DNA of 64,000 nucleotides from Mycoplasmatota bacterium (GTDB lineage: Bacteria; Bacillota_I; Bacilli_A; Haloplasmatales; Haloplasmataceae). This document shows, piece by piece, positions 1 through 56,699 of the stretch. A program made the position numbers and the translations under genes. The first letter of the stretch is position 1. Each line of letters starts with the position of its first letter. Below the pieces are notes generated by a model. That model made no database searches, was not told the DNA's origin, and was given only the letters and a program-made list of their open reading frames with translations. The DNA is taken from contig CP074573.1 of the NCBI GenBank assembly GCA_018394295.1, positions 2,651,684 to 2,715,683 on the forward strand, read 5' to 3'.

Positions 1-68
1 ATTTCTTTATGTTTATCCATTAAATATCTCTCCCTACTTTTTTATTATATAATAGATTATATAAAATA

Positions 69-94
69 AAGACTGACAACTGTATGTCAGTCTT
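69..94 (-). terminator. rho-independent terminator downstream of hcp
   Basis: 9-bp stem hairpin aagactgac...gtcagtctt followed by a T-run on the minus strand, about 200 nt after the hcp stop (289). Confidence 0.45.
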
Positions 95-288
95 TACTAT
101 TGTTTTTTTAGTATAATCAACCAATTATAATATATATTCTTATACCCTAGTAATTACTCTTTATTACATAGTGGTAGATAGTCTCAGATTTTGGACCCTC
201 TTATGCAGTACCACTTATCTATTTAATAATGTATTTAAAAGGTATAATATCATTACTGATTAGACCTTTATACTACATACAAATAAAT

Positions 289-1938: not shown

Positions 1939-2094
1939 TTAAATTCCTCCTATATATTTATTTACATTAAGACATATGCTTATATTTAGCAAGCAATTCT
2001 TAATTTTTATAAAAATATTTAAATTATAATTTTCAATTAGATAATATATCTTTCTAAATCAAATTTCAGTATCCTATGGTACAAGAAATGATAT

Positions 2095-2343
2095 TTAATA
2101 ATTATTTCCAGCTGCTTTGACATTATCTGGGTCAAAAGCATGACAAGGTGTTACCCCATAAACCATATTACACTGTGGACACTTATCCTCAAATGTACTC
2201 ATTTCAAAAGTATTTCCACAGTCTACACATGTAATTGAGAAAGCCATCGGCAGATATTGATTTGAAAACCCCATTGCTCTAACTTTATCTACTATTTGTT
2301 TTCCATTCTGAAATTTTCCACTACATCCTTCATGCATATTCAT
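2095..2343 (-). CDS. small Cys-rich zinc-ribbon protein, hcp-cluster associated
   Basis: 82 aa with C7, CxxC(39-42), CxxC(55-58) and C67. Lies 14 bp downstream of the ABC-type ATPase gene on the same strand. Confidence 0.5.
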   Translation of the reverse strand: MNMHEGCSGKFQNGKQIVDKVRAMGFSNQYLPMAFSITCVDCGNTFEMSTFEDKCPQCNMVYGVTPCHAFDPDNVKAAGNNY

Positions 2344-2357
2344 TCACCTCTATTCTT

Positions 2358-3377
2358 TTATTCACTTTTTAATATTTCGCCTTTTCTTAGTTTTGTTCTC
2401 ATCGAGTTATACACTTGATCCATTTTCTCTAATTCTAACAATATGCTTTTTTCTTCATCATCGGTTTCTATCACTTTATAGATTCCACCATTTTTTATGA
2501 CAATCCTTTTATCTGCCATAAGTGCTAAACTCGGATCATGTGTTGCCATTAAGACAATTTTCTCTTCATTTACAAGAAGATTTAATGCTCTTTTTCTATC
2601 AATTCCAGCATTTTCAATTTCATCTATTAAAACAATTGGTGATTTACTTAATATGGCCGTATCTGCAATCATTAAAGCTCTTGATTGACCACCACTTAAA
2701 CCAGTAATAGGTGTATCTAAATTAAACTTTTCACCTGCTAATTCATTGGCTGCTTCGATTATTTTTCTAATCACTTCTTCTTCATTATCAATCATTCTAC
2801 TTTTAGCATGTAATTCTAGAAATTCCTTCACGGTTAAATCCATCACAAAATTCATGTTTTGCGACAATTGCGCGACCAATTTATTACTTGTTGAAAAGCG
2901 AATGCTTTTATCAGGCAAATCTCCGTTAATTAAGATTGTTCTTTCAGTGGGTGTATCTTTATTTGCTGCCCATTCTATATCTGCGAGTAATCTACTTTTT
3001 CCAGAACCTGTAGGACCGACTATGGATATAATCTCACTTTTGTTAATGGTTAATTGATCAATATTCTCTTTATTCCCATATTTATCTTTACCAGAAACAA
3101 TCGTTATTGATTCTACTTTATCTTTATCTAATCCTAAAAACTCAAGCATTTGATTAATATACTCAACTAAATCAGATTTAATCTTTTCTATGTCTATTGC
3201 CCACTCTTCCCTATCTTCTTCTGTAAATTTATTTAAGTAATCTAAGAACGTATATTCTTCATAACCATTTACATCTAATTGATTATTTTCAAAAAATGAT
3301 AATATAAATGGGTATTTCTTCTCTAAATAACTGATTTTTTTTGTTTCTAATTCTTTTATATTAATCATTGTCATCAC
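2358..3377 (-). CDS. orphan ABC-type ATPase (single NBD, no permease partner) with ~100-aa N-terminal extension
   Basis: Walker A GPTGSGKS, ABC signature LSGGQSRAL, Walker B VLIDEIEN, H-loop ATHD. Start overlaps the upstream GTPase gene (translational coupling). No TM genes in the cluster. Confidence 0.7.
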   Translation of the reverse strand: MMTMINIKELETKKISYLEKKYPFILSFFENNQLDVNGYEEYTFLDYLNKFTEEDREEWAIDIEKIKSDLVEYINQMLEFLGLDKDKVESITIVSGKDKYGNKENIDQLTINKSEIISIVGPTGSGKSRLLADIEWAANKDTPTERTILINGDLPDKSIRFSTSNKLVAQLSQNMNFVMDLTVKEFLELHAKSRMIDNEEEVIRKIIEAANELAGEKFNLDTPITGLSGGQSRALMIADTAILSKSPIVLIDEIENAGIDRKRALNLLVNEEKIVLMATHDPSLALMADKRIVIKNGGIYKVIETDDEEKSILLELEKMDQVYNSMRTKLRKGEILKSE

Positions 3378-4071
3378 CGATTTTCATTTTTCTTACATTC
3401 CCCATCTGATATTCTTCACCAATTCTTGTCTCTCCTAAACAGTATGAGCATAAAGCTGATGGCATTGGGAATTTTAATTCCCTTCCTTTTACGGTTTCAA
3501 TACTCGCCTCGATGTCATAAACAAGTGTACTTAGTTCAAAGGCTCCTTGCCCTGTCAGTCCATTTACAAAAATAATTATAGCTTTAGGATTGACTGAATT
3601 TACACGAGATGCAAAAACCTCTCTCTCAGCTTGCGATACAATATCCCCTTTTGTGATTACGATTATATCAGCTGTTTTTAACATGGGTCCTATTTTTTTA
3701 GGTGTATTTATACCACTTAAGTTATCAATTACACAGATTGCTTTAATCCCTTTCATATAAGGAGAGCATCGATTACATAATCCTGCACTTTCAGTGATCA
3801 GTAAATCTAATTTTTCCTTTTTTCCCCATCTTACAACTTCTTCAATATTACTTGCAAAATAGTGGTCTGGACATAATGAACCTGATAATCCTTTTTTTAC
3901 AGGTACTTTTGCTTTTTCATATAGAATATCATCATCTGTATATAAACAATCAAATTTAACTACCCCTACTGATAATCCTCTCTTTTTAATCGCTTCTATC
4001 GTTTTTAATATGACAGAAGTCTTCCCAGATGAAGGAGGACCTGATATCGTTACTAAATTCATCCTAAACAT
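3361..4071 (-). CDS. G3E-family P-loop GTPase metallochaperone (UreG/HypB-like)
   Basis: GPPSSGKTS P-loop, CPDH motif (compare UreG CPH metal site), ESAG switch, ITKGD (NKxD-like). Additional CNRCSP and C-terminal CxxC. Overlaps both neighbouring genes. Confidence 0.6.
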   Translation of the reverse strand: MFRMNLVTISGPPSSGKTSVILKTIEAIKKRGLSVGVVKFDCLYTDDDILYEKAKVPVKKGLSGSLCPDHYFASNIEEVVRWGKKEKLDLLITESAGLCNRCSPYMKGIKAICVIDNLSGINTPKKIGPMLKTADIIVITKGDIVSQAEREVFASRVNSVNPKAIIIFVNGLTGQGAFELSTLVYDIEASIETVKGRELKFPMPSALCSYCLGETRIGEEYQMGNVRKMKIGDDND

Positions 4072-5284
4072 CTCCTTTTACAGCACGATTAAATATAGCT
4101 TCACATTCTTTGATTAAACTTGAAGTATCATGTTCTTTTATATAATCCCAACCAATCCACATATATTTATTTTCTTTCGTGATCATATTATTGACTTTAG
4201 GATTTACACTTGGAAATTTACCATTATGAGATAATATTTCTCCTATTTCTTTTGAAGCAAAAAACTCAACAATTGGTTTCAATTTATCTTTTTTATCTTT
4301 TTTAGTTAACATAAATATCGGACTTATAATAGCCCCATCCTTTGGCCAAACAGCAATCATTGGACCACCTTTTTTAACCATTTTGGTAAAGAAATAAGGC
4401 ATTATTGTAACGACTGGTTTATCAGTTTTTTTGATATGTGATTTCACCATTTCAGATGGATGCATACTCCTTTGTAAACTTTTTCCTAATCTTTTTACCC
4501 CATCTTCTCCATAGGTTTTGTAAATATTCAACAATATTGCATTAAACAAATCAAAATCTCCAATAGGTAAACTAACACTATTTTCAAATTCTTCTTTCAA
4601 AATATCTTCCCAACTAGATGGTATTTTTCTCCCCTTTAATTCTTCTTGATTCACTAAGAAAACAGCTGGGACAACACCAATAATAGAATATTGTTTATTT
4701 GGGTCCTCTAATTTAATATAATCATTATGAAAATCTTCATTATACTGATTAAAACCAGTTAAATCTTCAAACATATCTTCTGATTTATATTTACCAAACA
4801 GTTTTTTATCAAAGAATAAATCAAAACCTGCTGATATAAAGATATCTGGTAAATCATCTTTTGATTGACTTTTTAGAGTATCTTCTAACCAGTCAATCCC
4901 CATCGAAGCAGCTTTTAATTCATAATCAATATGAAAATCATAATTTTTATCAGTAAGCCAATCTTCAAAAGCTTCTGTTAAAGGTACTCTAACTGGACAC
5001 GGCAATATTCCCGCTATTTTCACAGAGTCTTTTTTATTAGATGATTTATTTAACCTAACTTCATTATTTTCTATCCGTTCAACAAGTTGAGCTACAAATG
5101 TATCAACATTTATTTTTTTTAACTTTAAAGCATCTTCTAATGTTATTGATTTACCAATAGCTCTTCTCATATTTTCATCTTTTATCTTATCAAACCCAAC
5201 TGATATTAACAGTTCTAAAGCTTCATCATATTTTTCTGTAATATCATATATTTTATCTTTTATATCAAAATATTTATTTTTCAT
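4064..5284 (-). CDS. fusion protein: N-terminal DUF1858-like helical domain + cytoplasmic periplasmic-binding-protein-like (SBP type II) domain
   Basis: The first ~70 aa resemble DUF1858 (the N-terminal domain of ScdA/RIC-type proteins) but lack Cys. The rest has alternating beta-alpha SBP-like segments (IAGILPCPVRV, VVPAVFLVN, IMPYFF..MIAVWPKDGAI). No signal peptide. Confidence 0.45.
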   Translation of the reverse strand: MKNKYFDIKDKIYDITEKYDEALELLISVGFDKIKDENMRRAIGKSITLEDALKLKKINVDTFVAQLVERIENNEVRLNKSSNKKDSVKIAGILPCPVRVPLTEAFEDWLTDKNYDFHIDYELKAASMGIDWLEDTLKSQSKDDLPDIFISAGFDLFFDKKLFGKYKSEDMFEDLTGFNQYNEDFHNDYIKLEDPNKQYSIIGVVPAVFLVNQEELKGRKIPSSWEDILKEEFENSVSLPIGDFDLFNAILLNIYKTYGEDGVKRLGKSLQRSMHPSEMVKSHIKKTDKPVVTIMPYFFTKMVKKGGPMIAVWPKDGAIISPIFMLTKKDKKDKLKPIVEFFASKEIGEILSHNGKFPSVNPKVNNMITKENKYMWIGWDYIKEHDTSSLIKECEAIFNRAVKGDV

Positions 5285-5349
5285 GTTACTTACATCTCCT
5301 TTTATCCTATTGATGTATTATTAGTCTACCACTAAATACATATGATATC

Positions 5350-5365
5350 GGTATCCTTTGTTACC
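5350..5365 (-). promoter_or_regulatory. putative HcpR half-conserved operator GGTATC-N4-GTTACC upstream of the 4-gene hcp-associated cluster
   Basis: Matches the perfect GTAAC-N4-GTTAC palindrome found upstream of the regulator gene, with 1 mismatch. Lies ~70-85 nt upstream of the start at 5284. Confidence 0.35.
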
Positions 5366-5443: not shown

Positions 5444-6169
5444 TCATAAACATGCTTTTAATCTTTTTAAATCTAATATTTTAAAATAATTTCTATAAAA
5501 ATCTATAATTCCTTCTTCCTGCATCTTGATTAATTCTCTAGAAAGAGAAGGTCTAGACACCAATAAATACTCAGCTAATTCATTTCTTTTTAAAGGGATA
5601 TCAAAATGAACTTTATTATTCATTCGATATTGTCGAAGTAAATATGTACTAATCTTTTTTCTAATACTTTTTAATGAAAGAATCTCTACTTTTTTATTTA
5701 AAATCAAGGCTTTTTTTGCCACAATTTGAAGCATATTTTCAATCATTATTCTATGCCCATGACAAACCTTAGTACATATTCCAACAATTTTCTGAGGTGG
5801 CAAAAACAAAATAGTACAATCTGTATTAGCAACTACTGTTGCTAACCATACATCACTTGTAAAAGCAGCTACTTCTCCAAATAAATCTCCACTCTTTAAC
5901 CTACTCATTATCACTCTATCACCAGCTAATGAGTCTTTCCCAACAATAACCTCTCCTTCTAAAACGATACCTATTCCATTTAATTCCTCTTTTTCAATCG
6001 TTATTACATCCTTTTTATTGTAGATTTTTATACTTGGTGTTAAACAATTTAATATACGTCTTAGTTCATCCTTCTCTATACCTTTAAATAACTCAATCTT
6101 CATCAATTGATTGATCCATTTTTCATACATCCCCATCAACCTCACTTTATATAAGTTAATTTTAATCAT
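5444..6169 (-). CDS. Crp/Fnr-family transcriptional regulator (HcpR-like by context)
   Basis: N-terminal cNMP-binding-like domain (GDLFGEVAAF) and C-terminal HTH (RNELAEYLLVSRPSLSRELIKMQEEG). Located directly upstream of the hcp locus. Confidence 0.8.
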   Translation of the reverse strand: MIKINLYKVRLMGMYEKWINQLMKIELFKGIEKDELRRILNCLTPSIKIYNKKDVITIEKEELNGIGIVLEGEVIVGKDSLAGDRVIMSRLKSGDLFGEVAAFTSDVWLATVVANTDCTILFLPPQKIVGICTKVCHGHRIMIENMLQIVAKKALILNKKVEILSLKSIRKKISTYLLRQYRMNNKVHFDIPLKRNELAEYLLVSRPSLSRELIKMQEEGIIDFYRNYFKILDLKRLKACL

Positions 6170-6225
6170 ACATATTAAATCTGAATATCTATTATATTAT
6201 TATATAATAATTAATAATATATTTC

Positions 6226-6241
6226 TGTAACATATGTTACC
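6226..6241. promoter_or_regulatory. perfect palindrome TGTAACATATGTTACC (GTAAC-N4-GTTAC), candidate HcpR/Crp-Fnr operator
   Basis: 14-bp perfect inverted repeat ~57 nt upstream of the regulator start codon. Suggests autoregulation. Confidence 0.55.
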
Positions 6242-6262
6242 GATTTTAAAATATAATTTTTA

Positions 6263-6712
6263 TTATACTTTATTGTTTTTGATTCGTTCTTTGCCTTTTT
6301 CAGTAGCAGCAGTTTTTCTTGTCAATTTTTTAATTTTATCAACATGTCTAAACCGCATTGCAGACCAGTCATTATTAATTGATACTTGTGATACTGGCTC
6401 AAATTCAAATGGTGCAAAAACATCCCACGCTTTATTTCTTTTTATATCCGATTTATATTTCTTAGAAGTTCCCTTTGGATAACAGAACCATAAGTATCCA
6501 TCATCTCCTAATGCTTTTATCACTGATTCTGCAATTTGGTAAGCATCTACCAAATTCATAACAAAGATTTGAATGAAATCATACTTCCCATTTATTTCTG
6601 TATGAATTTCAGATTCTATATCTTCTATGACTTCATTATATTCTTCTGGCATATTTACTATAAGAATTGGATTTTGTTCTTTTAAACCTAGTTTTTTCAA
6701 AATTGGATTCAT
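6263..6712 (-). CDS. hypothetical protein (149 aa)
   Basis: Intact ORF with codon usage consistent with neighbours. No recognisable motifs. Confidence 0.4.
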   Translation of the reverse strand: MNPILKKLGLKEQNPILIVNMPEEYNEVIEDIESEIHTEINGKYDFIQIFVMNLVDAYQIAESVIKALGDDGYLWFCYPKGTSKKYKSDIKRNKAWDVFAPFEFEPVSQVSINNDWSAMRFRHVDKIKKLTRKTAATEKGKERIKNNKV

Positions 6713-6768
6713 ATTAATCTCCTTGATTCATATAATATGACCTATCTATTTTTATTTTTAATTACATT

Positions 6769-7914
6769 TTATAAATTATTTTCAGTAATTATTATATTTT
6801 TTAATACATTGATTAATTCTATTTCCATTAAAGCTAAACCCTTATAAGGAAATTCATCTATAACTGATAAAGCATCTTGACAATACTGTAATGGTAATTC
6901 AACTTTTCTATTTATATAATACTCATAATATGCTTTAATACGTAGTCCATTAATATCATTGTCTTTTTGTAGCTTTTCTTCTATTTGTGTATAATATTTC
7001 TTAACTTTTTCAAAGTTATTAGTTATACAACCGATATAGCATATTTCATAGATAATAGTTCGTTGAAGTGGGACAGGTATAATCTTTATATTTTTTTCTA
7101 AAAAATCTATATAATACATCATTTTTTCAATATTATTTTCATCTAAAGCTTTATAATATAATAAGATAACATATCTAATATTCGCTCCAAATAAATACTC
7201 TATGTTATATGAATGTGAGATTTGAATATCTCTTGGACGAATACCAGATGATAGTTGAGTTATAAAGACACTTATATCACCCTTTATCCTCTGTATTGGT
7301 TTATTCAAAATTATATTTATTATACATCTTCCATCATTAGGATTATTCTTAATATATAACGGAATTAGATTAAATAAAGCAAAGAATATTGATAAAAAAC
7401 CTAACATAAGGATAAACACTTCGATAAATTTAGGTATATCATCAAAAATCATTAATAATAATAAAACTATAATTCCTGTAATAAAATTAATAATAATTCC
7501 ACCAGCAGTAAATAAAATATCTTTACCTCTTGATGTATGTCCCTTTGGCGGAATCATAACACAATAACAACCATAGCCTTTTGGTTTAACAATTGTAAAT
7601 CTTATTTTTGAATCTACCATTTTCCATAAAAAGATACTGAATCTATATGTGATAAGTTCAAATCCAAGCATCCTACCAAATAAATAATGACCAAACTCAT
7701 GTATATTAAGAGTAATAAAATATGAAATAAAAAAGTAAATTAAATATAACATAGGATGCTCTTCATAAAAATTACTAACACTATAAACTTTTAACACATA
7801 CAACCATCCAATAAATCCAATAATACATAGTGTCCATTGTAACATCCAATTATTTTTGTTTTTCTTCTTTTTACTATGTTCCATATACCCTCCACTTTTC
7901 CCTAATAAATCCAT
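6769..7914 (-). CDS. membrane protein with intramembrane HExxH (putative M50-like zinc metalloprotease) and C-terminal helical/TPR-like domain
   Basis: HEFGH motif after TM2, a later NPNDG (LDG-like) motif in a TM segment, multiple TM helices. Confidence 0.45.
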   Translation of the reverse strand: MDLLGKSGGYMEHSKKKKNKNNWMLQWTLCIIGFIGWLYVLKVYSVSNFYEEHPMLYLIYFFISYFITLNIHEFGHYLFGRMLGFELITYRFSIFLWKMVDSKIRFTIVKPKGYGCYCVMIPPKGHTSRGKDILFTAGGIIINFITGIIVLLLLMIFDDIPKFIEVFILMLGFLSIFFALFNLIPLYIKNNPNDGRCIINIILNKPIQRIKGDISVFITQLSSGIRPRDIQISHSYNIEYLFGANIRYVILLYYKALDENNIEKMMYYIDFLEKNIKIIPVPLQRTIIYEICYIGCITNNFEKVKKYYTQIEEKLQKDNDINGLRIKAYYEYYINRKVELPLQYCQDALSVIDEFPYKGLALMEIELINVLKNIIITENNL

Positions 7915-8099: not shown

Positions 8100-10094
8100 T
8101 CAATCTGAAATAATTTTCTTACACCGTTCATGAGTAAAAAGAATAAAAACAATATATATAATCATAAAAATTATAGAAGAAATGACGGTTGAATAAATAA
8201 AAGAATGAGCATCTACTGTCATCAAACTGTAGGAAGACATAGCGATTGTTCCAACTATACTATGAGAAATTGCGACGATTAACGGAAGTGAAAAATACAT
8301 AAATATCTGTTTGAAAATAGAACTGTGAACATCAGCTTTCTTCACACCAAGCTTATTCATAATTTCATAACACCTTTTATTATCCATTGTTTCTGTCATT
8401 TGCTGTAAGGACAATATAGAGGCTCCAACAATTAATAGAATACTTCCAATGAACAAACCTGTGAAAACATAAGAAGAGGCTTGCTTTAGGTTGTAATCCC
8501 TTTGATCACTTCTCAAAATAACCTGATGACCACCACTATAGCTTGCTATATAATTATATAGACCTTTATCACTGTTGCTTTCAAAGTCACTTTTCAACAT
8601 ATCGGTTCTTAATTCCTTGGTGTTAATAATCAAAGAAATATCATAGTTACCAATCTTTGAATTGATAAAATCTTCGTCTGATACTACTATTGTTACCCCA
8701 CCACCTATAACACCTCTAGAATCGTTAAGGGGCTCCAAATAGATAAGCTGATTCGGATTGAAAAGTTTTTTACTGCTTATCTTAACCTCTCTACAATTAC
8801 CAATAGATTGCATAACAGCCTTGTCTGCATGAAGCAAATATTCTCCTTGATTAATCAATACACTTTTATAACCTGAGATTTCTCGTACCTTATTATAATC
8901 AGATAGCATAATTAAACGTGTTGATATATCCTCAAAAAACGCATATTCATCACCCAGTTTGTAGGTTTTATGAGGATCTAAGAAGTAACTTAGGGTATAG
9001 TCTGTTCGATATAAAGGGAAACTATATTCTTTTTCGATAGTATAACCTTGTTCTTTAATATAATTTGTCACTTTGTCTATTGAAACATCGGGTTGTATTC
9101 CGCTAACTGATATGGAATATGGTGCAGTATATTTTAAATTTTCATCAATCCAAATATGTGCTGAAAAACCTAGATTAAGCATAACAAGTGTTAGGCTCAT
9201 TACAAATGAGATGATACTTAGTAAAATTCCATTTTGTCCTACTTTACTTGTAAGTTGTTTATTTGAAAAGAGATTTATTCCACTATACATTTTCTTTCTA
9301 TTATGACTAATTAAGAATGACATTACTGATGAGCCAAATAAAAAGATTCCAATGTGACCTAATAGTCCAATTCCAAACGCAATTTCTGTTGAGGTATCGG
9401 TGAAATCAATGTTTGGTTTTAACATTAAGATGTAAAAATATATGATTGCCACTATGCTTAAAACAAAACAAATAACAGAATAGTTGATAATTCCCTTTCT
9501 TTTTCTCTTTTTCAATATTGCTCTTTTTGATTTAACAATATTTATCAAATTTGCACGAGATATAATAAAATAGTTAAATATCGAAATGAGTACAAAGATA
9601 ATAAAAAATGTAAACAGTGTATTAATAAATGCAGTTCTTTCAAAAAGAATAGTACTATGTTGTATTTTAAGACCAAGCAATTTTATAATTAGTAAATCAA
9701 AGATTCGTGTTCCAAATATCCCTAAAACACAACCAGAAACAAAGGAAATAACACTTATTATAAGAGTTTCTAAGATCATCATAAGGTGAACCTGAGAATA
9801 TTTTAATCCAAGCATTAAATAAATACCAATCTCACGACTGCGTTTTTTTAAGATAAAATTGTTTGAATAAAGAGCAAGTCCTGTAACAATTAGCGTAATC
9901 GAAAGTGAAAGTTGCGTTAATATTCTTGTCAAATCCTCTACTGAATTTTCAGAAAACTCCTTCATAAAGGGTTGAAACTTAAGTAAATTGAATATATAGC
10001 TAAAAGAGACAGTAAGGGTTAAGGTAATGAAATAAATAGTATAATCATGGAAATTCTTTTTAACATTTTGGTACGATAGTTTAAATATCATCAT
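8100..10094 (-). CDS. ABC transporter permease, FtsX/MacB family with large extracellular domain (BceB-like)
   Basis: 664 aa with ~10 TM segments and a large loop between TM7 and TM8. Start overlaps the ATPase gene stop. Confidence 0.8.
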   Translation of the reverse strand: MMIFKLSYQNVKKNFHDYTIYFITLTLTVSFSYIFNLLKFQPFMKEFSENSVEDLTRILTQLSLSITLIVTGLALYSNNFILKKRSREIGIYLMLGLKYSQVHLMMILETLIISVISFVSGCVLGIFGTRIFDLLIIKLLGLKIQHSTILFERTAFINTLFTFFIIFVLISIFNYFIISRANLINIVKSKRAILKKRKRKGIINYSVICFVLSIVAIIYFYILMLKPNIDFTDTSTEIAFGIGLLGHIGIFLFGSSVMSFLISHNRKKMYSGINLFSNKQLTSKVGQNGILLSIISFVMSLTLVMLNLGFSAHIWIDENLKYTAPYSISVSGIQPDVSIDKVTNYIKEQGYTIEKEYSFPLYRTDYTLSYFLDPHKTYKLGDEYAFFEDISTRLIMLSDYNKVREISGYKSVLINQGEYLLHADKAVMQSIGNCREVKISSKKLFNPNQLIYLEPLNDSRGVIGGGVTIVVSDEDFINSKIGNYDISLIINTKELRTDMLKSDFESNSDKGLYNYIASYSGGHQVILRSDQRDYNLKQASSYVFTGLFIGSILLIVGASILSLQQMTETMDNKRCYEIMNKLGVKKADVHSSIFKQIFMYFSLPLIVAISHSIVGTIAMSSYSLMTVDAHSFIYSTVISSIIFMIIYIVFILFTHERCKKIISD

Positions 10095-10848
10095 TATTAC
10101 CGCCCTCTAGTACGGATATTGTATCAAGAATTTGTTCAAAAAATTCTCTTCTTGACCTATTCCCTTTTTCTGCACGAGTAAATACCCTTCCATCCCGAAT
10201 AAAAATAACACTATTGGCATAACTTGCAGCAACTGAGTCATGTGTTACCATTAAAACTGTAGTGTTAAGTTCGGAATTGATATATGATATTGTTTCAAGC
10301 AAAGTTTTAGAGGTTTTGGAATCAAGTGCTCCTGTAGGTTCATCTGCCAAAACAAGAGAAGGTTTGTTTATGATTGCTCTAGCTGCTGTTGCTCTTTGCT
10401 TTTGACCACCTGAAATCTCATAAGGGAATTTGTTTAATATATCCATTATGTCAAGCTTTTGTGCGATAGAATTCACCTGACTTTTTATTATTTTCTCATT
10501 GGCATGATTGATTGCAAGCGAAAATGCAATATTATCATAGATTGTTAAAGTATCAAGAAGATTAAAGTCCTGAAATATAAACCCCAATTCCTCACGTCTA
10601 AAATCAGAAGCCTTATTTTTATTTATCTTTGACACATCAATATCATTTATCAAAAGTTTTCCACTTGTAGGCTTATCAAGCGTGGAGAACATATTTAAAA
10701 GAGTTGTTTTACCACTTCCAGAAGCACCCATAATAGCGATAAACTCCCCCTCATAAACCCTAAGATCAATGCCATTTACAGCTTTAGTGATAGAGGTTCC
10801 TTTACCATAATATTTTTTTATGTTTTCTGCTTTTATTATTTGATTCAT
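10081..10848 (-). CDS. ABC transporter ATP-binding protein (BceA/MacB-type)
   Basis: GASGSGKTT Walker A, LSGGQKQR signature, Walker B LVLADEPTGALD, H-loop VTHD. Confidence 0.85.
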   Translation of the reverse strand: MNQIIKAENIKKYYGKGTSITKAVNGIDLRVYEGEFIAIMGASGSGKTTLLNMFSTLDKPTSGKLLINDIDVSKINKNKASDFRREELGFIFQDFNLLDTLTIYDNIAFSLAINHANEKIIKSQVNSIAQKLDIMDILNKFPYEISGGQKQRATAARAIINKPSLVLADEPTGALDSKTSKTLLETISYINSELNTTVLMVTHDSVAASYANSVIFIRDGRVFTRAEKGNRSRREFFEQILDTISVLEGGNNDDI

Positions 10849-10935
10849 ACTATTTTCACACCTACTTAAATACGTTTTTATTGATTTAATCTATTATATT
10901 TTAGCATTATCAAATTATATTAGAAATCGATTTTC

Positions 10936-10978
10936 CTTACAAAAAAAGAGGAACCTTTCATTTTTGAAAGATAACTCT
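10936..10978 (-). promoter_or_regulatory. conserved upstream element CTTACAAAA-N-ACCTTTCA-N5-GAAAGATAAC (candidate RR binding site/promoter of the ABC operon)
   Basis: Near-identical 43-bp element also found upstream of the acyltransferase gene (13912-13955). Contains the palindrome CTTTCA-N5-TGAAAG. Lies ~90-130 nt upstream of the ATPase start. Confidence 0.5.
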
Positions 10979-10983
10979 CATAA

Positions 10984-11985
10984 CTACGTTAACTGAAGTA
11001 CAGAAAATATAATTGATACAGTAGTTTTCTGTCTTTCAGAAGTAACAACAACCTTGTGTCCTAATCCATCACAGATTTTTTTAACAAGATAAAGTCCCAT
11101 ACCAGTACTATAACCGATGGCTCTACCATTTTGTCCTGTAAAACCTTTCTCAAATACTCTTTTAATATCTTGTGAAGGTATACCTTTTCCATTATTTGTG
11201 ATCGATAGAATAATCGAATGATCCCTTTTTTCTATTACGATAAAAACTTCTGGTTCGGTTTCATCACTGTATTTAACCGCATTGTCAAGAATTTGGCTGA
11301 TAACAAATTCAATCCACTTTGAATCAGTTAGTACTAATTCACTGTTTTGACAAATACTTAAATGTACATTTTTAGCAATAACCTGGCTTCTATGCTTATT
11401 AATCGCTTTCTTTACAACTGGAAGTAAAACAATTTCATTGACAAAATAATCTTTTTCAATGTTGTAGCTTCTAGCATAAAACAGTGCTTGCTCTACATAT
11501 TTTTCGATTATCTCATTTTCTTCTTTAATACTACGACTATCAGGGGTATCCGTTTTATCAGATATTAACTTAATAACAGATATAGGTAGCTTTATCTCAT
11601 GCACCCATCTTTCGATATACTCACGATATTCATCACGCATTTTTTCTATTTCAGCAATTTTATTATTATAGGAAATACAACTTCCTTCAATAATGTCATG
11701 ATAAATCTTGGTTTCCTCACTAAGTGATTCATCAATAAACTCACTTACTAAAGTTTTCTCATCAAGGGAATCAAAGCGATATAATAGATCATTATAGTAA
11801 TTTCGCTTTCTGATAAACCGAATAATGTGATATAGAATATTTAAAGATATCATAAATAGATTGATAATTAATATATCTTGTAAGGACAGATTAATCAACA
11901 TGAAAAATATAATAAGAAATATAAATGTACTTATTTGTAGAACAACTAACCATTTTTCATCTTTTAAATATGTTCTTAGTTTCAT
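10984..11985 (-). CDS. sensor histidine kinase, intramembrane-sensing type (BceS-like)
   Basis: Two N-terminal TM helices with no extracellular domain. H-box region, HATPase_c motifs (GTGMGL, N-box). Confidence 0.8.
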   Translation of the reverse strand: MKLRTYLKDEKWLVVLQISTFIFLIIFFMLINLSLQDILIINLFMISLNILYHIIRFIRKRNYYNDLLYRFDSLDEKTLVSEFIDESLSEETKIYHDIIEGSCISYNNKIAEIEKMRDEYREYIERWVHEIKLPISVIKLISDKTDTPDSRSIKEENEIIEKYVEQALFYARSYNIEKDYFVNEIVLLPVVKKAINKHRSQVIAKNVHLSICQNSELVLTDSKWIEFVISQILDNAVKYSDETEPEVFIVIEKRDHSIILSITNNGKGIPSQDIKRVFEKGFTGQNGRAIGYSTGMGLYLVKKICDGLGHKVVVTSERQKTTVSIIFSVLQLT

Positions 11986-12653
11986 TTTATTATATATCCT
12001 TGTCCACGTATAGTAGATATGATGTCATTTAGACCAATATCAGTAAGCTTTGAACGAAGTCTTGTAATATTAACTGACAAGGTATTTTCATCTACAAAAT
12101 CATCATTATCCCATAGTGTTTCTATCAGTCTACCACGGCTTACAATACTCCCCTTACTTTTTAAGAGAACAGCTAAAAGTCGTTGTTCATTTTTTGTAAG
12201 TTCAACTTTTTTATCTTTATATTCAAGAATGTTTGAAGCTGTATAAAGTTTTATACCATCAGTGGAAATCGTTTCACTCATTTGGGTTATTCCATAACTA
12301 CGCTTAAGTACTGCAGAAATTCTTGAAAGCAATACTTGATTGTCATAGGGTTTGGTGATGTAATCATCGCCACCCATAGTCATCGCCATCACCTCATCAG
12401 CAGTATTGTTTCGACTTGTCAGGAATATAATAGGCACATTTGAGATTTCTCTGATTTTTCTACAAAAATGGTATCCGTCAAAAGAAGGGAGGTTAATATC
12501 CAGTAATATAATATCTGGACGTTTTAATTTGTATTCTTCAAAAACATAATCAAAATCATCTATTCTATAAACTTCATAACCATACTTTTTAAGCAAGTAG
12601 CATAATTCGTTACATAGCTTGAGATTATCTTCAATAACAAGAATTTTATACAT
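11982..12653 (-). CDS. response regulator, OmpR/PhoB family (BceR-like)
   Basis: Receiver domain (DD..D phosphoacceptor region, K site) and C-terminal winged-helix (LT.NEQRLL...RGQGY). Confidence 0.85.
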   Translation of the reverse strand: MYKILVIEDNLKLCNELCYLLKKYGYEVYRIDDFDYVFEEYKLKRPDIILLDINLPSFDGYHFCRKIREISNVPIIFLTSRNNTADEVMAMTMGGDDYITKPYDNQVLLSRISAVLKRSYGITQMSETISTDGIKLYTASNILEYKDKKVELTKNEQRLLAVLLKSKGSIVSRGRLIETLWDNDDFVDENTLSVNITRLRSKLTDIGLNDIISTIRGQGYIIK

Positions 12654-14293: not shown

Positions 14294-14504
14294 ATTATCA
14301 CCTCCATATAGTAGTTGGTAGTGTAAAAGTTTTTCTTAAAACCAATACAAAACCTTATATATATATTATTTTTTATTATATAATGAGTTCCCCCCCTGTG
14401 TTTGGGAGGTTGCTCGTTATATTTTTTTAACCCTTTATATACAAAAAGATAGATACACCTGATATAATTTAATCACCACAAAAAAACTATAAGGAGTATC
14501 TATC

Positions 14505-14768
14505 ATGGTTAAAATTATATCAGTTCTTTCAGTATTTTTAAAGTATTTAAACAAACTACTTTATAAATTTATTCTTTTTCTAGATTCACACATTATTTCT
14601 ACACCTAGTTCTAAGTCATCTGGCACTTATTATGAACCTTTTAGGAAGTTCACTGTTGATGGTGAACCTATTATTCAGAAGGTTGAAAAGCTAGATTATC
14701 AAGAATTGCTTAATGTGTATTTTTTAAAGTACAATAAGCATCTCAAACCAGTTACTAGACGAATATAA
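14505..14768 (+). pseudogene. IS6-like transposase, N-terminal segment interrupted by IS21 insertion
   Basis: First 85 aa identical or near-identical to the intact-length copies at 55564 and 31229. The reading frame ends 2 codons after the IS21 junction. Confidence 0.8.
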
Positions 14769-14816: not shown

Positions 14817-15566
14817 TTAATTTTCTTCGATAAAGTAATTTTTAAGTCGATAAGATTTACCTGTAATGTTAACTACATGAGCATGATGAAGAACTCGATC
14901 AAGGATAGCGTTAGCTATTACAGGGTCTTTAAAAATATCATCCCAATTAGAAAAGTTAATGTTGGTTGTAATTATCGTACTTCGTTTTTCATATCGTCTA
15001 TCTATTAGCTGAAAGAACAATTTAGAATCTTCTTTGTCGATAGGTAAATAGCCTAGTTCATCAATAATCAATAATTTGTACTTGGTAAAATGCTTGAGTC
15101 TATCGTTTAAGCGATTTTCTAACTTAGCTTTCTTTAACTGGGCTATCAAATCATGACATTTTATAAAGTAAGTTGATATACGCTTCTTCGCAGCGGATAT
15201 ACCTATTGATGTAGATAAGTGGGTTTTACCAACACCACTCGTTCCCATAAAAACGATGTTCTCGCATTGATGGATGAATCGATGACTCTCAAAATCTAAT
15301 ATTTGTTCTTTGTTTATATTTTCTTGGAAAGAGAAGTCAAAATCCTTCAATTCTTTGTAATGGGGGAATGCCCCTACTTTAACCATAGCTTTGATCATAC
15401 TAGCCTCTTTATAATCAATTTCATATGTTGTTAATTTAATAAGCCCATCAACGAAAGATAGATTATTTTTATTAATAAAGTTAATAGTATCGTCTAAATG
15501 ATTTTTCATTTCTTTTAATTTTAAATATTCTAAATTTGCGATTAATTGCTCGTGTGCTGTTGTCAT
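14817..15566 (-). CDS. istB: IS21-family helper ATPase IstB
   Basis: GTSGVGKTHL Walker A, LLIIDELGYLP Walker B, RYEKRSTIITTN and ILDRVLHH motifs. Confidence 0.85.
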   Translation of the reverse strand: MTTAHEQLIANLEYLKLKEMKNHLDDTINFINKNNLSFVDGLIKLTTYEIDYKEASMIKAMVKVGAFPHYKELKDFDFSFQENINKEQILDFESHRFIHQCENIVFMGTSGVGKTHLSTSIGISAAKKRISTYFIKCHDLIAQLKKAKLENRLNDRLKHFTKYKLLIIDELGYLPIDKEDSKLFFQLIDRRYEKRSTIITTNINFSNWDDIFKDPVIANAILDRVLHHAHVVNITGKSYRLKNYFIEEN

Positions 15567-16866: not shown

Positions 16867-16952
16867 TGATTAACTATGAAATTATACTATATTAACTGTA
16901 CATTTTAAAGTGATCACTTCTGTACATATCTATCTTATCATTTATAGACGAA

Positions 16953-18121
16953 GGCCATCAAAACTTGATTTCAAAGGAAATTGCCCTATTTGTGGTGCTC
17001 CTCATGATTACATCTATGAAAATAATATTAAATCAAAACAGTTACTTTGTAAGGTATGTAGTCATACATTTACCTTGAATAATGATTTTCTTGAAAAGAT
17101 TATTTTAAAATGTCCTCATTGTTCAAAGAACCTTGAAAGAATTAAAGACCGTAATAGTTATATTATTTATAAATGTAGACATAAGAAATGTTCCTTTTAT
17201 TTAGATAAATTAAAGAAATTAACACCAGATCAATTAAAACAATTCAAAAAGAAACCAGGTAAATTTAAACTTCATTATATCTATCGTGCTTTCGATATTA
17301 ACTTTGATTCCCTAGAACGTGACTCTATGTCTAATTTAAATATGAAGGTTGATTTAGCCAATATCAGACATTCTAAGCATACTCTAGGCTTAATCTTAAC
17401 GTATTACGTTAACTACGGTTTGTCGAGTAGGAAAACTGCAGCTATCATGTATGATATTCACCAAGTTAAGATTTCCCATCAAACCGTGATGAATTATGCA
17501 AATAGTGTTTCTACAATGATTCGTCCCTTACTTGAAAATTACCCATATGATTTATCATCTGACCTTTGTGGGGATGAAACATATGTTAGGGTTAAGGGGA
17601 AGAAGCATTATATCTTCTTCTTCTCAGATAAAATTAAAAAGATTATTACTTCTTATCAAGTTTTTAGTAAACGTGATACTTTTTCAGCAGTCGTTTCACT
17701 ATATCAAACATTCAAAAAATACACTGAACTACCTAAGAATTTGAAAGTAGTTGTGGATGGTAATCCTATTTACAACGTTGCATGGTCATACTTTAAAAGC
17801 ATGAACATAAATTTCGATTTATTTCAAGTTATAGGACTCACTAATAACACGAAAACAGACAAGGATTACCGTCCATTTAAACAAGTAACTGAGCGTTTAA
17901 ATAGAACTTTCAAAGACGATTATATCCAAATGAACGGATTTGGTAATATCAAGAGCGCTAATGCTTATATGGTCTTGTTTACAACGTTTTTTAACTTTCT
18001 AAGACCACATAAATCGTTAGGTTATAACCCACCTGTTAAATTAGAAGAGTTTGAGGATTTACCTCATATGCCAAGCAAATGGCTTTCTCTAATAGATATG
18101 AGTTACTCTTATATAAACTAA
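16953..18121 (+). pseudogene. IS6-like transposase, C-terminal segment (resumes after IS21)
   Basis: Continues ...PSKLDFKGNCPICGAP (Zn-finger CxxC x2, CPHC) and the DDE region DETYVRVKGKKHY / VDGNPIY / RPHKSLGYNPP. Confidence 0.8.
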
Positions 18122-21190: not shown

Positions 21191-21485
21191 AAAGTTGTTC
21201 TCCTTACTAAGTTATTAAATTTTATTTCAAGACAACTAGTTGTCTTGAAATAACTTACTATGTCTACTATACTATTTTTAGAGCTCCATGACAACTATTC
21301 TAACACAGAGGGTAAACGCTATACTAAATTTTGTATCCAATGTTTCACTATCTATATCACTTACTATATTCTAAAGATCAAATGTTATTATAGTATTTTC
21401 ATAAGTCATTAAGTGTGTATGATGTGCAATTGGTGCATCATTACTAACAACAGATAATTATAATATATAATGGATTTTATATATT

Positions 21486-22004
21486 TTACAAATTCAGTTT
21501 ATTACACCATGCTTTTACTTCTTTATGTCCATTTAAAATAATAACTTGTTTACCTAACTTTTCTGCTTCATTAAATAGTAATTGACGCTCGATTTTCTTC
21601 TTTGGATATCCAGATAATACATATTTCACAACTTCCATATTATATTCTTCGTAACATCCCTCGGAAAGTTCCGGACGTGCATCATATTTATGTTTAAAAT
21701 ATCTTCTCAGTCCTCTAAATAAGTATATAAATCGATTTATATTTATATATATTATAGTGTCACAATTTTCGAATCTACCGTCTTTCTTTGATGCACTGAA
21801 TTTGTTTCCATCAAATATCCATTTATCTTTTTCTGATAACTCCTTAATTATATCAATCTGTTCTTTCTCTGATCGCTCTTGCCAGTTTTCCTTCCAGGTA
21901 ATACTGTCTCTATGATATACAGAAATATTAAATTTGTTTTCAAGCTTATTTGCTAAGGTAGTTTTCCCAGAACCAGACGAACCAGTTATCCATATCCTTT
22001 GCAT
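21486..22004 (-). CDS. small P-loop NTPase/kinase (AAA_33/topology-modulation-protein-like)
   Basis: ITGSSGSGKTT Walker A. 172 aa. ~80% identical paralog at 26267-26785. Confidence 0.6.
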   Translation of the reverse strand: MQRIWITGSSGSGKTTLANKLENKFNISVYHRDSITWKENWQERSEKEQIDIIKELSEKDKWIFDGNKFSASKKDGRFENCDTIIYININRFIYLFRGLRRYFKHKYDARPELSEGCYEEYNMEVVKYVLSGYPKKKIERQLLFNEAEKLGKQVIILNGHKEVKAWCNKLNL

Positions 22005-22074
22005 TACGACCTCCTACAAATATTGACTGTGATTATAATATCAATTATAATTGACATTACTATTTACTTAATTA

Positions 22075-22108
22075 TATCAAAAAGATACTGAGTTAACAGT
22101 ACCTTTTG
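22075..22108. repeat. dispersed 35-bp palindromic repeat, copy 2
   Basis: TATCAAAAAGATACTGAGTTAACAGTACCTTTTG, between the NTF2-like fragment and the kinase gene. Confidence 0.6.
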
Positions 22109-22193
22109 TTTATTATAATTATATTTAAACAATAAAATAATTTATTATTAGAGGTTTCTGTTTAATTATGGAATCCTATCTAAAAGTTTATAT

Positions 22194-22433
22194 TTATTCA
22201 TCTTGCCATAACATATTTGAAATCTTCCAACCACTTCCATCATTTAATAAATGGATTAAGTTTACACCTCTTTTTATAATTTCTTCATGTTCTTTAGACT
22301 TTTTCGCTTCATACTTACTATAAACATTAGCTATATTCTTATAAGTTTTAATCTCATAGTTTAATCCATATTCATAAAAATTATGCTCTCTAAGGAAATT
22401 TCTAACCTTTAAAATATATTGATTAACATCCAT
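22194..22433 (-). pseudogene. N-terminally truncated NTF2/SnoaL-like protein (paralog of 27002-27409)
   Basis: 79 aa, ~90% identical to the C-terminal 79 aa of the 135-aa paralog. The 5' part is deleted. Confidence 0.55.
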
Positions 22434-22640
22434 TTGTAATAGTTTACCTATATGGATCCATCGAATTCTGCAAAATAATTAATTCTGTTCCTAAAGAATC
22501 TGCTATTTTCTTATTTATCTTTACAAACCATTTACCAAATTCACTTCCAACCATTACCACAGCATATTATATTTTTTATCAGCTGATTTTTTCATATTTT
22601 TTCAAGCACTAATATGAGAAAATAAGATCACTTAAATAAC
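22434..22640 (-). pseudogene. remnants of alpha/beta-hydrolase gene and downstream sequence (deleted copy of 27560-28860)
   Basis: ~110 bp nearly identical to part of the hydrolase gene at 27570-27680, followed by ~80 bp matching 28760-28850. Internal deletions. Confidence 0.5.
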
Positions 22641-25822: not shown

Positions 25823-26266
25823 TCCCTTAAGGAGATTTTCATTAGGTAAATTAGTTTCTATATTATAATTCTTTAACTTAGTTGCATTTTTTGTTCTTCT
25901 TTAATTTTTGTCAAATCGGTAAATATACCTAAATATTTATCAACTTTACTGTTAGATTTATTTTTCATCACGTATATGAACAGTTTTTTGGGATACAACA
26001 TACCATCTTTTTTTCTGTCCCACAACTCTCCCTTCCAAATGTAATGCATAAAGTAAACAACTGTTGTTTCTGAACTTAATCCAAATTTTTTTTCATCTAA
26101 TTGGCTTCCTATAAGCATTTTCAGTAGTGCCTATTCAACAAGTTGTCTTTCTTCAAATTTCATAGCGCAACTCCCTTTAATAGGTTTATTTTATACTCTA
26201 TAAGATTTCTTTAATAATCAATAAGTATCTTTGTAAAAGTATACTTAATATTGGCTCTTATAATAT

Positions 26267-26785
26267 TTATAAATTCAGTTTATTACACCATGCTCTTACT
26301 TCTTTACGTCCATTCAATATAATTACTTCTTTCCCTAACTTTCTAGCTTCATTAAATAGTAATTGTCGCTCATATTTCTTTTTTGGATAGCCAAATAATA
26401 CATATTTTATTGCTTCCATATTATATTCTTCATAACATCCTTCTGAAAATTCAGGTCTTGTATGATGTCTATGTTTTAAATATCTTCTTACTCCTCTATA
26501 TAAACATAAAAATCGATTTATATTTATATGTATTATCATGTCACAATTATCAAATCTACCATCATTCTTTGAAGCACTGAATTTATTACCATCAAATATC
26601 CATTTATCTTTTTCTGATATCTCTTTTATTATTTCAATCTGTTCTTTCTCTGAACGCTCTTGCCAATTTTCCTTCCAGGTAATTCTGTCTCTATGATATA
26701 CAGGAATATTTAATTTGTTTCCAAGTTTATTCGCGATAGTAGTTTTCCCTGAACCAGACGAACCTGTTATCCATATCCTATACAT
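26267..26785 (-). CDS. small P-loop NTPase/kinase (paralog of 21486-22004)
   Basis: ITGSSGSGKTT Walker A. 172 aa. Confidence 0.6.
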   Translation of the reverse strand: MYRIWITGSSGSGKTTIANKLGNKLNIPVYHRDRITWKENWQERSEKEQIEIIKEISEKDKWIFDGNKFSASKNDGRFDNCDMIIHININRFLCLYRGVRRYLKHRHHTRPEFSEGCYEEYNMEAIKYVLFGYPKKKYERQLLFNEARKLGKEVIILNGRKEVRAWCNKLNL

Positions 26786-26865
26786 TTACGATCTCCTACA
26801 TATATTATTTTTTTGACTGTGATTTGATACTAATAATAAATGAATTTACTATTTACTTAATTATA

Positions 26866-26900
26866 TCTAAAAAGATACTGAATTAACAGTACCTTTTGTT
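26866..26900. repeat. dispersed 35-bp palindromic repeat, copy 3
   Basis: TATCTAAAAAGATACTGAATTAACAGTACCTTTTG. Confidence 0.6.
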
Positions 26901-27001
26901 ATTAATATTTCTTTTTAAACAATATAATAATTAGTAATAAAAAGATTAATAATTTCAGTTTAATGGAAACCTCGCTATCTTTACAATATCTAAATAAATT
27001 T

Positions 27002-51274: not shown

Positions 51275-51386
51275 TCTTTTATCTCCTCTCTACATAGAAA
51301 ATTCTTGTTTTACTACTAGACATAACTTTATAAGATGCATTATGTCAAAATCTGCTTAACTGAGATTCTAAACCACATTTTTTGCT

Positions 51387-52090: not shown

Positions 52091-52096
52091 TTATCA

Positions 52097-56664: not shown

Positions 56665-56699
56665 TCTCTCAAACTCCTCCTTCTTGTCCAAATATGCTT

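Follow-up and report, generated by a model that had tools for sequence, protein, structure and literature searches.

Gene content of the locus

We analyzed a window of 64,000 nucleotides (nt; the whole stretch of DNA considered here) from the genome of a Mycoplasmatota bacterium (GenBank assembly GCA_018394295.1, contig CP074573.1, positions 2,651,684 to 2,715,683), in which four minus-strand genes form a cassette between a Crp/Fnr-family regulator gene and hcp, the gene for the hybrid cluster protein (Table 1). Read along the minus strand from 6169 down to 289, the order is the regulator, a fusion of DUF1858 with a substrate-binding protein (SBP) domain, a GTPase, an ATP-binding cassette (ABC) ATPase, a Zn-ribbon protein, and hcp. 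All four cassette open reading frames (ORFs) of the initial annotation are present, and Pfam upheld its domain calls (DUF1858 + SBP_bac_6, cobW/G3E, ABC_tran, and CxxC...CxxC). The hcp product scored 861.7 bits against NF003658 (cutoff 367) and matched Prismane at E = 1.3e-183; the annotation deposited for the source genome (locus tags KHQ81_12365/12375) lists both the GTPase and the Zn-ribbon protein as "hypothetical protein."

We revised the starts of the GTPase, ABC, and Zn-ribbon genes using orthologue alignments, ribosome-binding-site spacing, and the deposited annotation. The junctions first reported for these genes, two overlaps (8 and 17 nt) and a spacer of 14 nt, hold for the longest ORFs but not for the favored starts, which leave 1 nt between the first two genes, an overlap of 8 nt at the next junction, and a spacer of 20 nt at the last; since the junctions are short under either set of starts, the four genes are still tightly coupled. 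At the far end of the locus, the hairpin 3' of hcp and the minus-strand T-tract that follows it together make a candidate terminator for the hcp-containing operon.

Table 1. Genes and sequence elements of the cassette locus, in window positions (aa, amino acids)
Feature	Position	Strand	Evidence or remark
Perfect HcpR2 box GTAACATATGTTAC, 5' of the regulator gene	6227..6240		0 mismatches
HcpR2-type Crp/Fnr regulator, 241 aa	5444..6169	-	Pfam cNMP_binding + HTH_Crp_2
HcpR2 box, minus (coding) strand GTAACAAAGGATAC	5351..5364		One mismatch; 73 nt before the fusion start codon
Candidate -10 hexamer TAGACT	5323..5328	-	First base 29.5 nt from box center
DUF1858 + SBP fusion protein, cytoplasmic, 406 aa	4064..5284	-	Pfam, AlphaFold2, Foldseek
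G3E P-loop GTPase, 233 aa	3361..4062 (longest ORF from 4071)	-	Pfam, NCBIfam, orthologue alignment
ABC ATPase with a single nucleotide-binding domain, without permease, 336 aa	2358..3368 (longest ORF from 3377)	-	Pfam, NCBIfam, orthologues
Zn-ribbon protein, 80 aa, N-terminus MHEGCSG	2095..2337 (longest ORF, 82 aa, from 2343)	-	Orthologues
Degenerate HcpR2-like box GTACCATAGGATAC, Zn-ribbon/hcp gap	2069..2082		2 mismatches
Promoter-like CTGAAA-17-TATTAT, directly after the degenerate box	2041..2069	-	9/12 match
hcp, hybrid cluster protein / hydroxylamine reductase, 549 aa	289..1938	-	NF003658, Prismane
Palindromic 12-bp hairpin 3' of hcp, then TTTATTTTAT on the minus strand	67..96		Candidate operon terminator

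HcpR2 boxes and regulation of the cassette

GTAAC-N4-GTTAC palindromes precede both the regulator gene, where the copy is perfect, and the cassette, where it has one mismatch, in agreement with the initial annotation; allowing at most one mismatch, the window holds four such sites where 1.0 would be expected. The HcpR2 consensus is an GTAACnnnnGTTAC-type box (Rodionov 2005, PMC1274295), and the GATAC half-site variant of the window box, which recurs in many genera, was scored as an HcpR2 site in Table S1 of that study (PMC1274295). We found a box with at most one mismatch 60-203 nt, mostly 65-110 nt, 5' of the orthologous fusion gene in 52 of the 77 orthologous loci with enough upstream DNA for the search, against a background frequency of 0.024 per 300 nt. 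The cassette box is, by these comparative criteria, functional and more than a chance match, and the cassette belongs to the HcpR2 regulon on the criterion of an GTAACnnnnGTTAC box upstream that is kept in orthologous loci. The spacing of the candidate -10 hexamer TAGACT from this box would fit the geometry of a class II Crp/Fnr-activated promoter. The helix-turn-helix (HTH) of the adjacent regulator reads VSRPSLSR (recognition helix SRPSLSR), with Pro at the position of CRP Glu181. Pro at this position has been correlated with the GTAAC motif (Rodionov 2005, PMC1274295), which assigns the window regulator, by its sequence, to the HcpR2 branch.

Regulation of hcp itself is less simple. No box with at most one mismatch precedes hcp, as first noted, but a degenerate copy with two mismatches lies in the 155-nt gap between the Zn-ribbon gene and hcp, and the TATTAT of the promoter-like sequence that follows starts 29.5 nt from the center of this box, equal to the spacing between the cassette box and TAGACT. 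Two-mismatch boxes number 34 in the window against 22 expected, and a single such site is not statistically significant. The gap contains no terminator and no stable RNA fold (z-score -0.40). Taken together, the absence of a terminator and the degenerate box with its 29.5-nt spacing suggest that hcp expression may be dual, by read-through and from its own weak HcpR promoter. Among relatives, hcp has its own box in 17 of 25 cases and none in the remaining 8.

Conservation and gene neighborhood

We compared the cassette across a close set of 80 loci from distinct reference genomes (Clostridiaceae, Peptostreptococcaceae, Tissierellia, Lachnospiraceae, and others), with counts given over the loci whose contig permits the call. 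The SBP–GTPase–ABC trio is present in 74 of 74 loci, the Zn-ribbon gene in 42 of 66, and an HcpR-like gene lies upstream in 24 of 67; hcp is directly downstream in 22 of 51 and within 10 kb in about 33 of 80. GTPase identity across the genera of this set is 77-95%, and the DUF1858 + SBP_bac_6 architecture is kept in all of the best 120 (62-83% identical) of the 2543 relatives of the fusion protein at E ≤ 0.001. Neighbor clustering revealed that only hcp and hcpR recur beside the cassette across lineages. The cassette is thus a genuine, conserved unit that is often linked to hcp and belongs to the HcpR regulon.

The same four genes also occur together in six loci of other phyla that we reached through the Zn-ribbon family. 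There, the cassette is accompanied by an Rrf2 regulator and hcp in Spirochaetales, by an Rrf2 regulator in Cloacimonadota, by a gene for a YgbA_NO protein of the "nitrous oxide-stimulated promoter" family in Deferribacter (NF007714, 111 bits, cutoff 88), and by a ferredoxin gene in Candidatus Sabulitectum, and it stands alone in Bacteroidales. The Rrf2 regulators carry a three-Cys motif, and their best models are the SUF regulator, IscR, and NsrR; assignment to NsrR was rejected, with scores for all three models below their cutoffs and only the Rrf2 superfamily cutoff reached. The regulator and stress context thus vary while the cassette stays intact. Its link to nitric oxide (NO) and Fe–S stress is robust, and its link to hcp frequent but not obligatory.

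This distribution bears on the proposal that the cassette is dedicated to maturing Hcp, inserting the hybrid [4Fe-2S-2O] cluster into the apoprotein as CooC does for the homologous C-cluster of carbon monoxide dehydrogenase (CODH). The position of hcp on the same strand directly downstream, the uninterrupted 155-nt gap, and the boxless hcp genes of 8 relatives, which fit co-transcription, all favor such a role, as does the spirochaete locus, where the link between cassette and hcp outlasts a change of regulator. At two loci (L001 and L003), hcp paralogues flank the cassette on both sides, and the downstream copy is the orthologue of the window hcp (83-84% identical) while the upstream copy is a paralogue (49%), so the cassette may be tied to one Hcp subtype; at L003 an hcpR-like gene intervenes between the cassette and the downstream hcp. 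On the other hand, hcp adjoins the cassette in fewer than half of the informative loci, other phyla have the cassette by itself or beside ygbA or a ferredoxin gene, most hcp genes in relatives (17 of 25) have their own box, and a wider family of homologous modules, described below, is unlinked to hcp. Hcp is moreover functional in Escherichia coli and Desulfovibrio, and recombinant Hcp has been made in E. coli; E. coli and similar Hcp producers are not known to carry the cassette. The hybrid-cluster assembly system first proposed for this locus thus keeps its G3E type and its hcp link but not its exclusive devotion to Hcp, which we consider unlikely.

CooC is a MinD-type ATPase, not a G3E GTPase, and the analogy with the CODH system is limited in other respects as well. 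The cassette resembles CooC/CooT/CooJ as an NTPase-dependent accessory system encoded beside an enzyme of the Prismane/CODH family (PMC6006190), but it contains no CooT or CooJ homologues, and its client would be an all-iron hybrid cluster.

Clostridia account for nearly all named homologues of the cassette proteins, and the fusion protein reaches 83% identity to metagenome proteins; the 3.2-Mb source genome is labeled "Mycoplasmatota bacterium." We found no clear GC anomaly of the kind expected of a horizontal-transfer island, with a GC content of 0.29-0.31 at the locus and 0.26-0.30 around it. With no GC island at the locus, this pattern is accounted for by the taxonomic label or by an ancient transfer.

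A G3E GTPase of a new subfamily

The cassette GTPase matched PF02492 (cobW/HypB/UreG) at 52.5 bits (cutoff 20.7; E = 6e-14), and its motifs read GPPSSGKT, C67-P-D-H70, ESAG-L-C99-N-R-C102, TKGD, and C208-x-x-C211. The G3E superfamily, with four recognized subfamilies, is defined by a GxxxxGK[ST] Walker A and an ExxG G3 motif (PMC9164220); both are present here, as GPPSSGKT and ESAG, without variation in 74 orthologues. Equally invariant among these orthologues are the seven Cys of the protein (C42, C67, C99, C102, C113, C208, and C211) and its one His (H70). The match above cutoff and the invariant CPDH bear out the initial description of a G3E metallochaperone-type GTPase with a CPxH-like motif.

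In NCBIfam and the PDB, this GTPase finds its best relatives in HypB and UreG (E about 4e-6 for the solved proteins), and all three are G3E P-loop GTPases with a Walker A and an ExxG G3 motif. Cys/His motifs of a metal-binding type lie between G1 and G3, where CPDH may be compared with the CPH of UreG, and directly after G3 (LCNRC); C102 aligns with the Cys of the HypB NLICP motif, and the CPDH region lies outside this local alignment. The GTPase is encoded beside a small protein that, like HypA, has an N-terminal Met-His-Glu and a four-Cys zinc ribbon. Nevertheless, the GTPase scored far below the NCBIfam cutoffs for HypB (TIGR00073, 52.5 bits, cutoff 121.2) and UreG (TIGR00101, 29.8 bits, cutoff 204.2), and it differs from both in its additional invariant C42, C99, C113, and C208-x-x-C211, in its TKGD G4 motif, in having CPDH instead of the CPH of UreG, and in its surroundings: no urease genes lie nearby, and no hydrogenase or hyp genes were seen among the annotated neighbor clusters of the 80 close loci, 80 more distant loci (see below), and the six cross-phylum loci. 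Unlike the described G3E systems, it is always paired with an ABC ATPase and an SBP-like protein.

The COG0523 proteins (CobW/ZigA/Nha3), which share PF02492 with the cassette GTPase, are GTPases under metal regulation, and gene context is used to predict their often unknown clients (PMC9164220). In contrast to them, the cassette GTPase has no CobW_C Pfam match and no CxCC motif in its sequence, so it is not a COG0523 protein; its NCBIfam matches to CobW and ZigA are marginal. We detected only 478 relatives at E ≤ 1e-3 and 69 at E ≤ 1e-30 among 1.84 billion representative proteins, and this small number sets the GTPase apart as a small, isolated G3E clade. The sequence evidence supports a G3E metallochaperone-type protein of a new subfamily.

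The SBP fusion protein and the ABC ATPase

The fusion protein consists of a DUF1858 domain at residues 8-64 (E = 1.2e-15), which as first noted has no Cys, and a type II SBP fold at about residues 85-406 (SBP_bac_6, E = 2.3e-83). Its AlphaFold2 model (predicted local distance difference test, pLDDT, 84) comprises an N-terminal helical domain, a long helix, and a type II binding-protein fold. C96 is invariant and lies just after beta1, where binding proteins usually contact their ligand; H275 is kept in 80 of 81 sequences, and H283 and H353 in about 93%. The top Foldseek matches of the SBP fold were FutA, AfuA, P5PA, FbpA, and PotD, at 10-17% identity. We tried to read a ligand from these neighbors and rejected the attempt as uninformative: at such identity they bind Fe, sugar phosphates, pyridoxal phosphate, or polyamines.

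RIC (YtfE/ScdA) is a member of the nitrosative-stress regulon that works alongside Hcp, and its N-terminal helical domain has been reported to be related to DUF1858. This kinship, on which the initial annotation drew, failed in our comparisons: the YtfE alignment is collinear with an hhalign probability of 2% (E = 0.02), and no ScdA_N Pfam match appeared even at E 10. Neither ScdA_N nor hemerythrin Pfam domains matched any cassette protein. The cassette differs from RIC in lacking the hemerythrin-like di-iron domain and a Cys pair in DUF1858, and RIC needs no NTPase.

The ABC protein has one ABC_tran nucleotide-binding domain (NBD; E = 1.8e-16) with intact Walker A, LSGGQ, Walker B-Glu, and H-loop, preceded by an N-terminal extension of about 100 residues to which no fold was assigned. 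We considered this extension (window 3054-3368) as a second DUF1858 and rejected the assignment, the hhalign match (probability 4%, 25 columns, E = 0.0098) being a hint only. The opening of the extension, some 30 residues, is similar to the beginning of DUF1858 (the "kYP" stretch), and in one orthologue (L056) Pfam matched DUF1858 to the same stretch at E = 0.009; if such a head were real, both the SBP and the ABC protein of the NO-regulon branch would carry DUF1858-like heads.

Like SufC of SufBCD and component A2 of methyl-coenzyme M reductase (MCR) activation, the ABC protein is a soluble NBD with intact catalytic motifs, encoded with metal-center proteins. In contrast to both, its NBD is nearest to those of transporters (EcfA2, MJ0796, and BceA; E about 1e-12), and the SufB/D and Mcr partners are absent; SufC did not appear among the matches listed (the best 25 of 142 NCBIfam families and 22 PDB sequences), and no SufB or SufD gene was found in the neighbor clusters of the close loci.

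Could these proteins instead be parts of a conventional binding-protein-dependent importer, for iron for example, whose permease is encoded elsewhere? Their database names ("ABC transporter substrate-binding protein" and "ABC transporter ATP-binding protein") and the periplasmic iron-binding proteins among the fold neighbors point that way. Yet the N-terminus of the SBP protein is the soluble helical DUF1858 domain, with no hydrophobic leader, signal peptide, or lipobox, and no permease recurs beside the cassette in the neighbor clusters of the 80 close loci, in line with the first description of the ATPase as a single-NBD protein without permease. Among distant loci, the only permease cluster (17 loci) is part of a separate NMT1-type transporter. 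Two lineages have the ABC protein fused to the GTPase, and FtsX (8100-10094), the sole permease near the cassette in the window, comes with an ATPase of its own. An importer is in our view highly improbable.

A defense or other conflict system built on an ABC-type ATPase, of the kind directed against phages, is suggested by weak partial PADLOC matches of the NBD to mads_3, AriA, and GajA-type ATPases and by weak AAA_21/AAA_23 matches. These PADLOC matches cover generic NBD motifs only, the SBP and Zn-ribbon proteins had no PADLOC match, and the GTPase had only a weak P-loop match to mad8 (E = 0.0025); HcpR regulation and hcp synteny argue for stress metabolism, and the high identity of the GTPase across genera is unlike that of fast-evolving defense genes, leaving a conflict system hardly credible.

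The cassette might also act as a ligand-sensing switch, in which the SBP would bind an N-oxide-derived or metal ligand and the NTPases would control Hcp, HcpR, or another target without delivering metal. SBP folds are widely reused as sensor domains, one Foldseek neighbor (6lkg) is an SBP of two-component signaling, and the cassette lies beside a stress regulator or under its control. The invariant Cys/His set and G3E ancestry of the GTPase point to metal handling instead, Pfam detected no output domain (HTH, kinase, or cyclase) in any component, and many loci have no nearby regulator, so that a sensing role seems quite unlikely.

The Zn-ribbon protein

Orthologues of the Zn-ribbon protein start with MHEGCSG and share invariant M1, H2, C5, C37, C40, C53, C56, and C65, with H66 nearly so (80-residue numbering); position 3 is Glu or Asp in nearly all and A, K, or Q in a few. 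Besides the ribbon, H2, C5, C65, and H66 constitute a possible second site with two Cys and two His. The AlphaFold2 model (pLDDT 89.6) had no significant structural neighbors.

Some orthologues are automatically annotated as HypA, and the protein does have a HypA-like N-terminal Met-His-Glu and a four-Cys zinc ribbon, a motif that alone does not establish membership. It scored below the cutoffs of both HypA models (Pfam PF01155, 17.7 bits, cutoff 28.9; NCBIfam TIGR00100, 13.4 bits, cutoff 88.1) and falls outside the HypA fold. We treat HypA as a functional analogy for this protein and not as a family assignment; our tests did not demonstrate homology to HypA.

Component fusions and a wider module family

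Relatives of the GTPase include a 509-residue GTPase–ABC fusion, a 613-residue GTPase–ABC fusion with a different linker, and a fragment in which the C-terminal part of the SBP is fused to the GTPase. By their sequences, the two GTPase–ABC fusions are independent. CPDH, E[ST]AGLCxRC[SAT]P, and the C-terminal CxxC are still present in GTPases that are only 30-45% identical.

Seeding a metagenome scan with such distant GTPases yielded a distant set of 80 loci, in most of which the GTPase adjoins an ABC homologue (41-56% identical, NBD only) in either order. A partner of about 318 residues without a Pfam match occurs in 37 of these loci; hhalign shows it to be a clear homologue of the SBP domain in the window (probability 99.9%, E = 1e-36), and its Cys after beta1 is retained. 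In 25 loci, the partner is a 228-residue protein that combines a PF04060 [4Fe-4S] domain (RnfB/CFeSP type) with a C-terminal domain rich in Cys and His, often in apparently archaeal contexts (ComA, TFE, and FtsZ). The permease cluster mentioned above, the sole one of this set, lies about 2.6 kb from the modules, and no hcp gene was found near the distant modules in the 80 loci. The core is thus an SBP-like/GTPase/ABC module of general function; DUF1858, the ABC N-terminal extension, and the Zn-ribbon protein are, judged from this comparison, additions specific to the NO-regulon branch.

One metagenome contig (L105) carries both branches, with a DUF1858-branch cassette (773-2884; GTPase 76% identical, Zn-ribbon gene present) and a distant GTPase–ABC pair on the other strand (6164-7607), so the branches are paralogous and not interchangeable. 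In the apparently archaeal metagenome loci (L096:6852-10300, L119:8314-9198, and L130:1164-1850), the 228-residue partner has the conserved motifs RPLGCPITHF, VGPCH, and PGHCMMQKVHSG, and a CofE-like gene (PF01996) follows. A CofE-like gene of the F420-ligase family stands beside the module in two unrelated branches (L074:7889-9151 in Proteiniclasticum, and L119:8314-9198), lying 5' of hcpR in nine Proteiniclasticum-type loci and downstream in the archaeal-type loci; this adjacency may be a coincidence or a functional link.

Proposed function

The cassette is a conserved operon and a member of a nitrosative-stress regulon, with no permease, with fusions between its components, with conserved ligand-type residues, and with a wider family of related modules. 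We propose, at a probability of about 0.5, that it encodes a cytoplasmic complex driven by GTP and ATP that delivers or restores a metal ion or small cluster under nitrosative stress; Hcp is a likely client, though not the only one. We favor this proposal because of the G3E ancestry and invariant ligand-type residues of the GTPase, the HypA/UreE-like donor motif of the Zn-ribbon protein, the fusions, the missing permease, and the combination of regulon and neighbors.

In this scheme, the complex would be induced with the nitrosative-stress regulon, through HcpR2 in Clostridia and an Fe–S-type Rrf2 regulator in some other phyla. A Cys/His-rich GTPase dimer would bind metal at CPDH and ESAG-LCxRC, as in UreG and HypB, with GTP binding and hydrolysis gating its release. 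Much as HypA or UreE does, the Zn-ribbon protein would serve as metal donor or adaptor, using its conserved Met-His-Glu-Gly-Cys at the N-terminus and Cys-His at the C-terminus. The SBP-like cleft may then hold the cargo or the client, with invariant Cys96 at the ligand-contact position, and an ABC ATPase dimer may act as an ATP-driven clamp that opens and closes the assembly, instead of as a transporter. The clients would probably be Hcp and/or other NO-damaged iron centers, making the cassette an energy-dependent counterpart of RIC/YtfE-type repair.

Several observations weigh against this proposal. The conserved G4 motif of the GTPase is TKGD (ITKGDI) and not NKxD, with Thr in place of Asn; about a third of the close loci yielded no Zn-ribbon gene; and the relationship between DUF1858 and RIC is not significant. 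The neighbors of the SBP bind varied ligands, so the fold does not reveal the ligand, and the wider module family showed no hcp nearby, so the core activity is more general than NO defense. Metal binding, its hand-over, complex formation, the roles of the SBP cleft and the ABC clamp, and the client are all features that we infer from the sequences.

Other features of the window

The window contains a complete BceAB-like module (8100-12653) of an FtsX permease, an ABC ATPase, a histidine kinase, and an OmpR-type response regulator, unrelated to the cassette. Mobile elements abound in this part of the genome: an IS240-type DDE transposase element occurs in two copies (16910-18121 and 55428-56708) that are 98% identical over 300 nt, a further repeat (14488-14763 and 55549-55824) is 96% identical, and an IS21 IstB-like gene lies at 14817-15566. 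Two direct-repeat pairs (83% and 96% identical), at 21456-22440 and 26237-27248 and about 4.8 kb apart, suggest a duplicated segment of about 1 kb. The GC content rises to 0.37 at 51001-54000, compared with about 0.27 elsewhere, which might reflect rRNA/tRNA genes or foreign DNA.

Significance for nitrosative-stress defense and metal-center handling

Apart from Hcp (NF003658), no protein of the locus reached a curated family cutoff in our Pfam and NCBIfam searches. Full-text literature searches found no description of the cassette, of an accessory GTPase for Hcp, or of a partnership between a G3E protein and an ABC ATPase, and the regulon tables of Rodionov 2005 (PMC1274295) do not contain the cassette, which agrees with the initial view that its components form no described system. 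We also found no expression data on NO or nitrite induction via HcpR in the literature searched. Each part falls into a known superfamily, and there is precedent for a G3E metallochaperone that works with a small donor protein. The names "ABC transporter substrate-binding protein," "ABC transporter ATP-binding protein," and "HypA" under which the proteins are filed are probably misleading.

Hcp is a central NO and hydroxylamine detoxifier of anaerobes, including gut pathogens, and no accessory factor for its unusual iron–sulfur–oxygen cluster was described in the literature searched. More speculatively, the SBP-like/G3E/ABC trio could be an ancient cytoplasmic metallocenter-insertion machine of Bacteria and Archaea whose GTPase represents a fifth G3E subfamily, obligately coupled to an ABC motor and an SBP-fold scaffold, with the DUF1858/Zn-ribbon branch serving the Hcp hybrid cluster or NO-damaged iron centers; we regard this as possible yet doubtful. 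If true, the hybrid cluster would gain the accessory system it has so far lacked, and an ABC ATPase and a G3E GTPase would for the first time be seen to work in one chaperone complex. The clients of orphan G3E members are an open problem, for which the cassette offers both an NO-stress context and a plausible client in Hcp, and its four proteins are small, soluble, and suited to biochemistry. The broader family, including the apparently archaeal versions with an Fe–S partner, suggests a general and so far overlooked way of handling metal centers.

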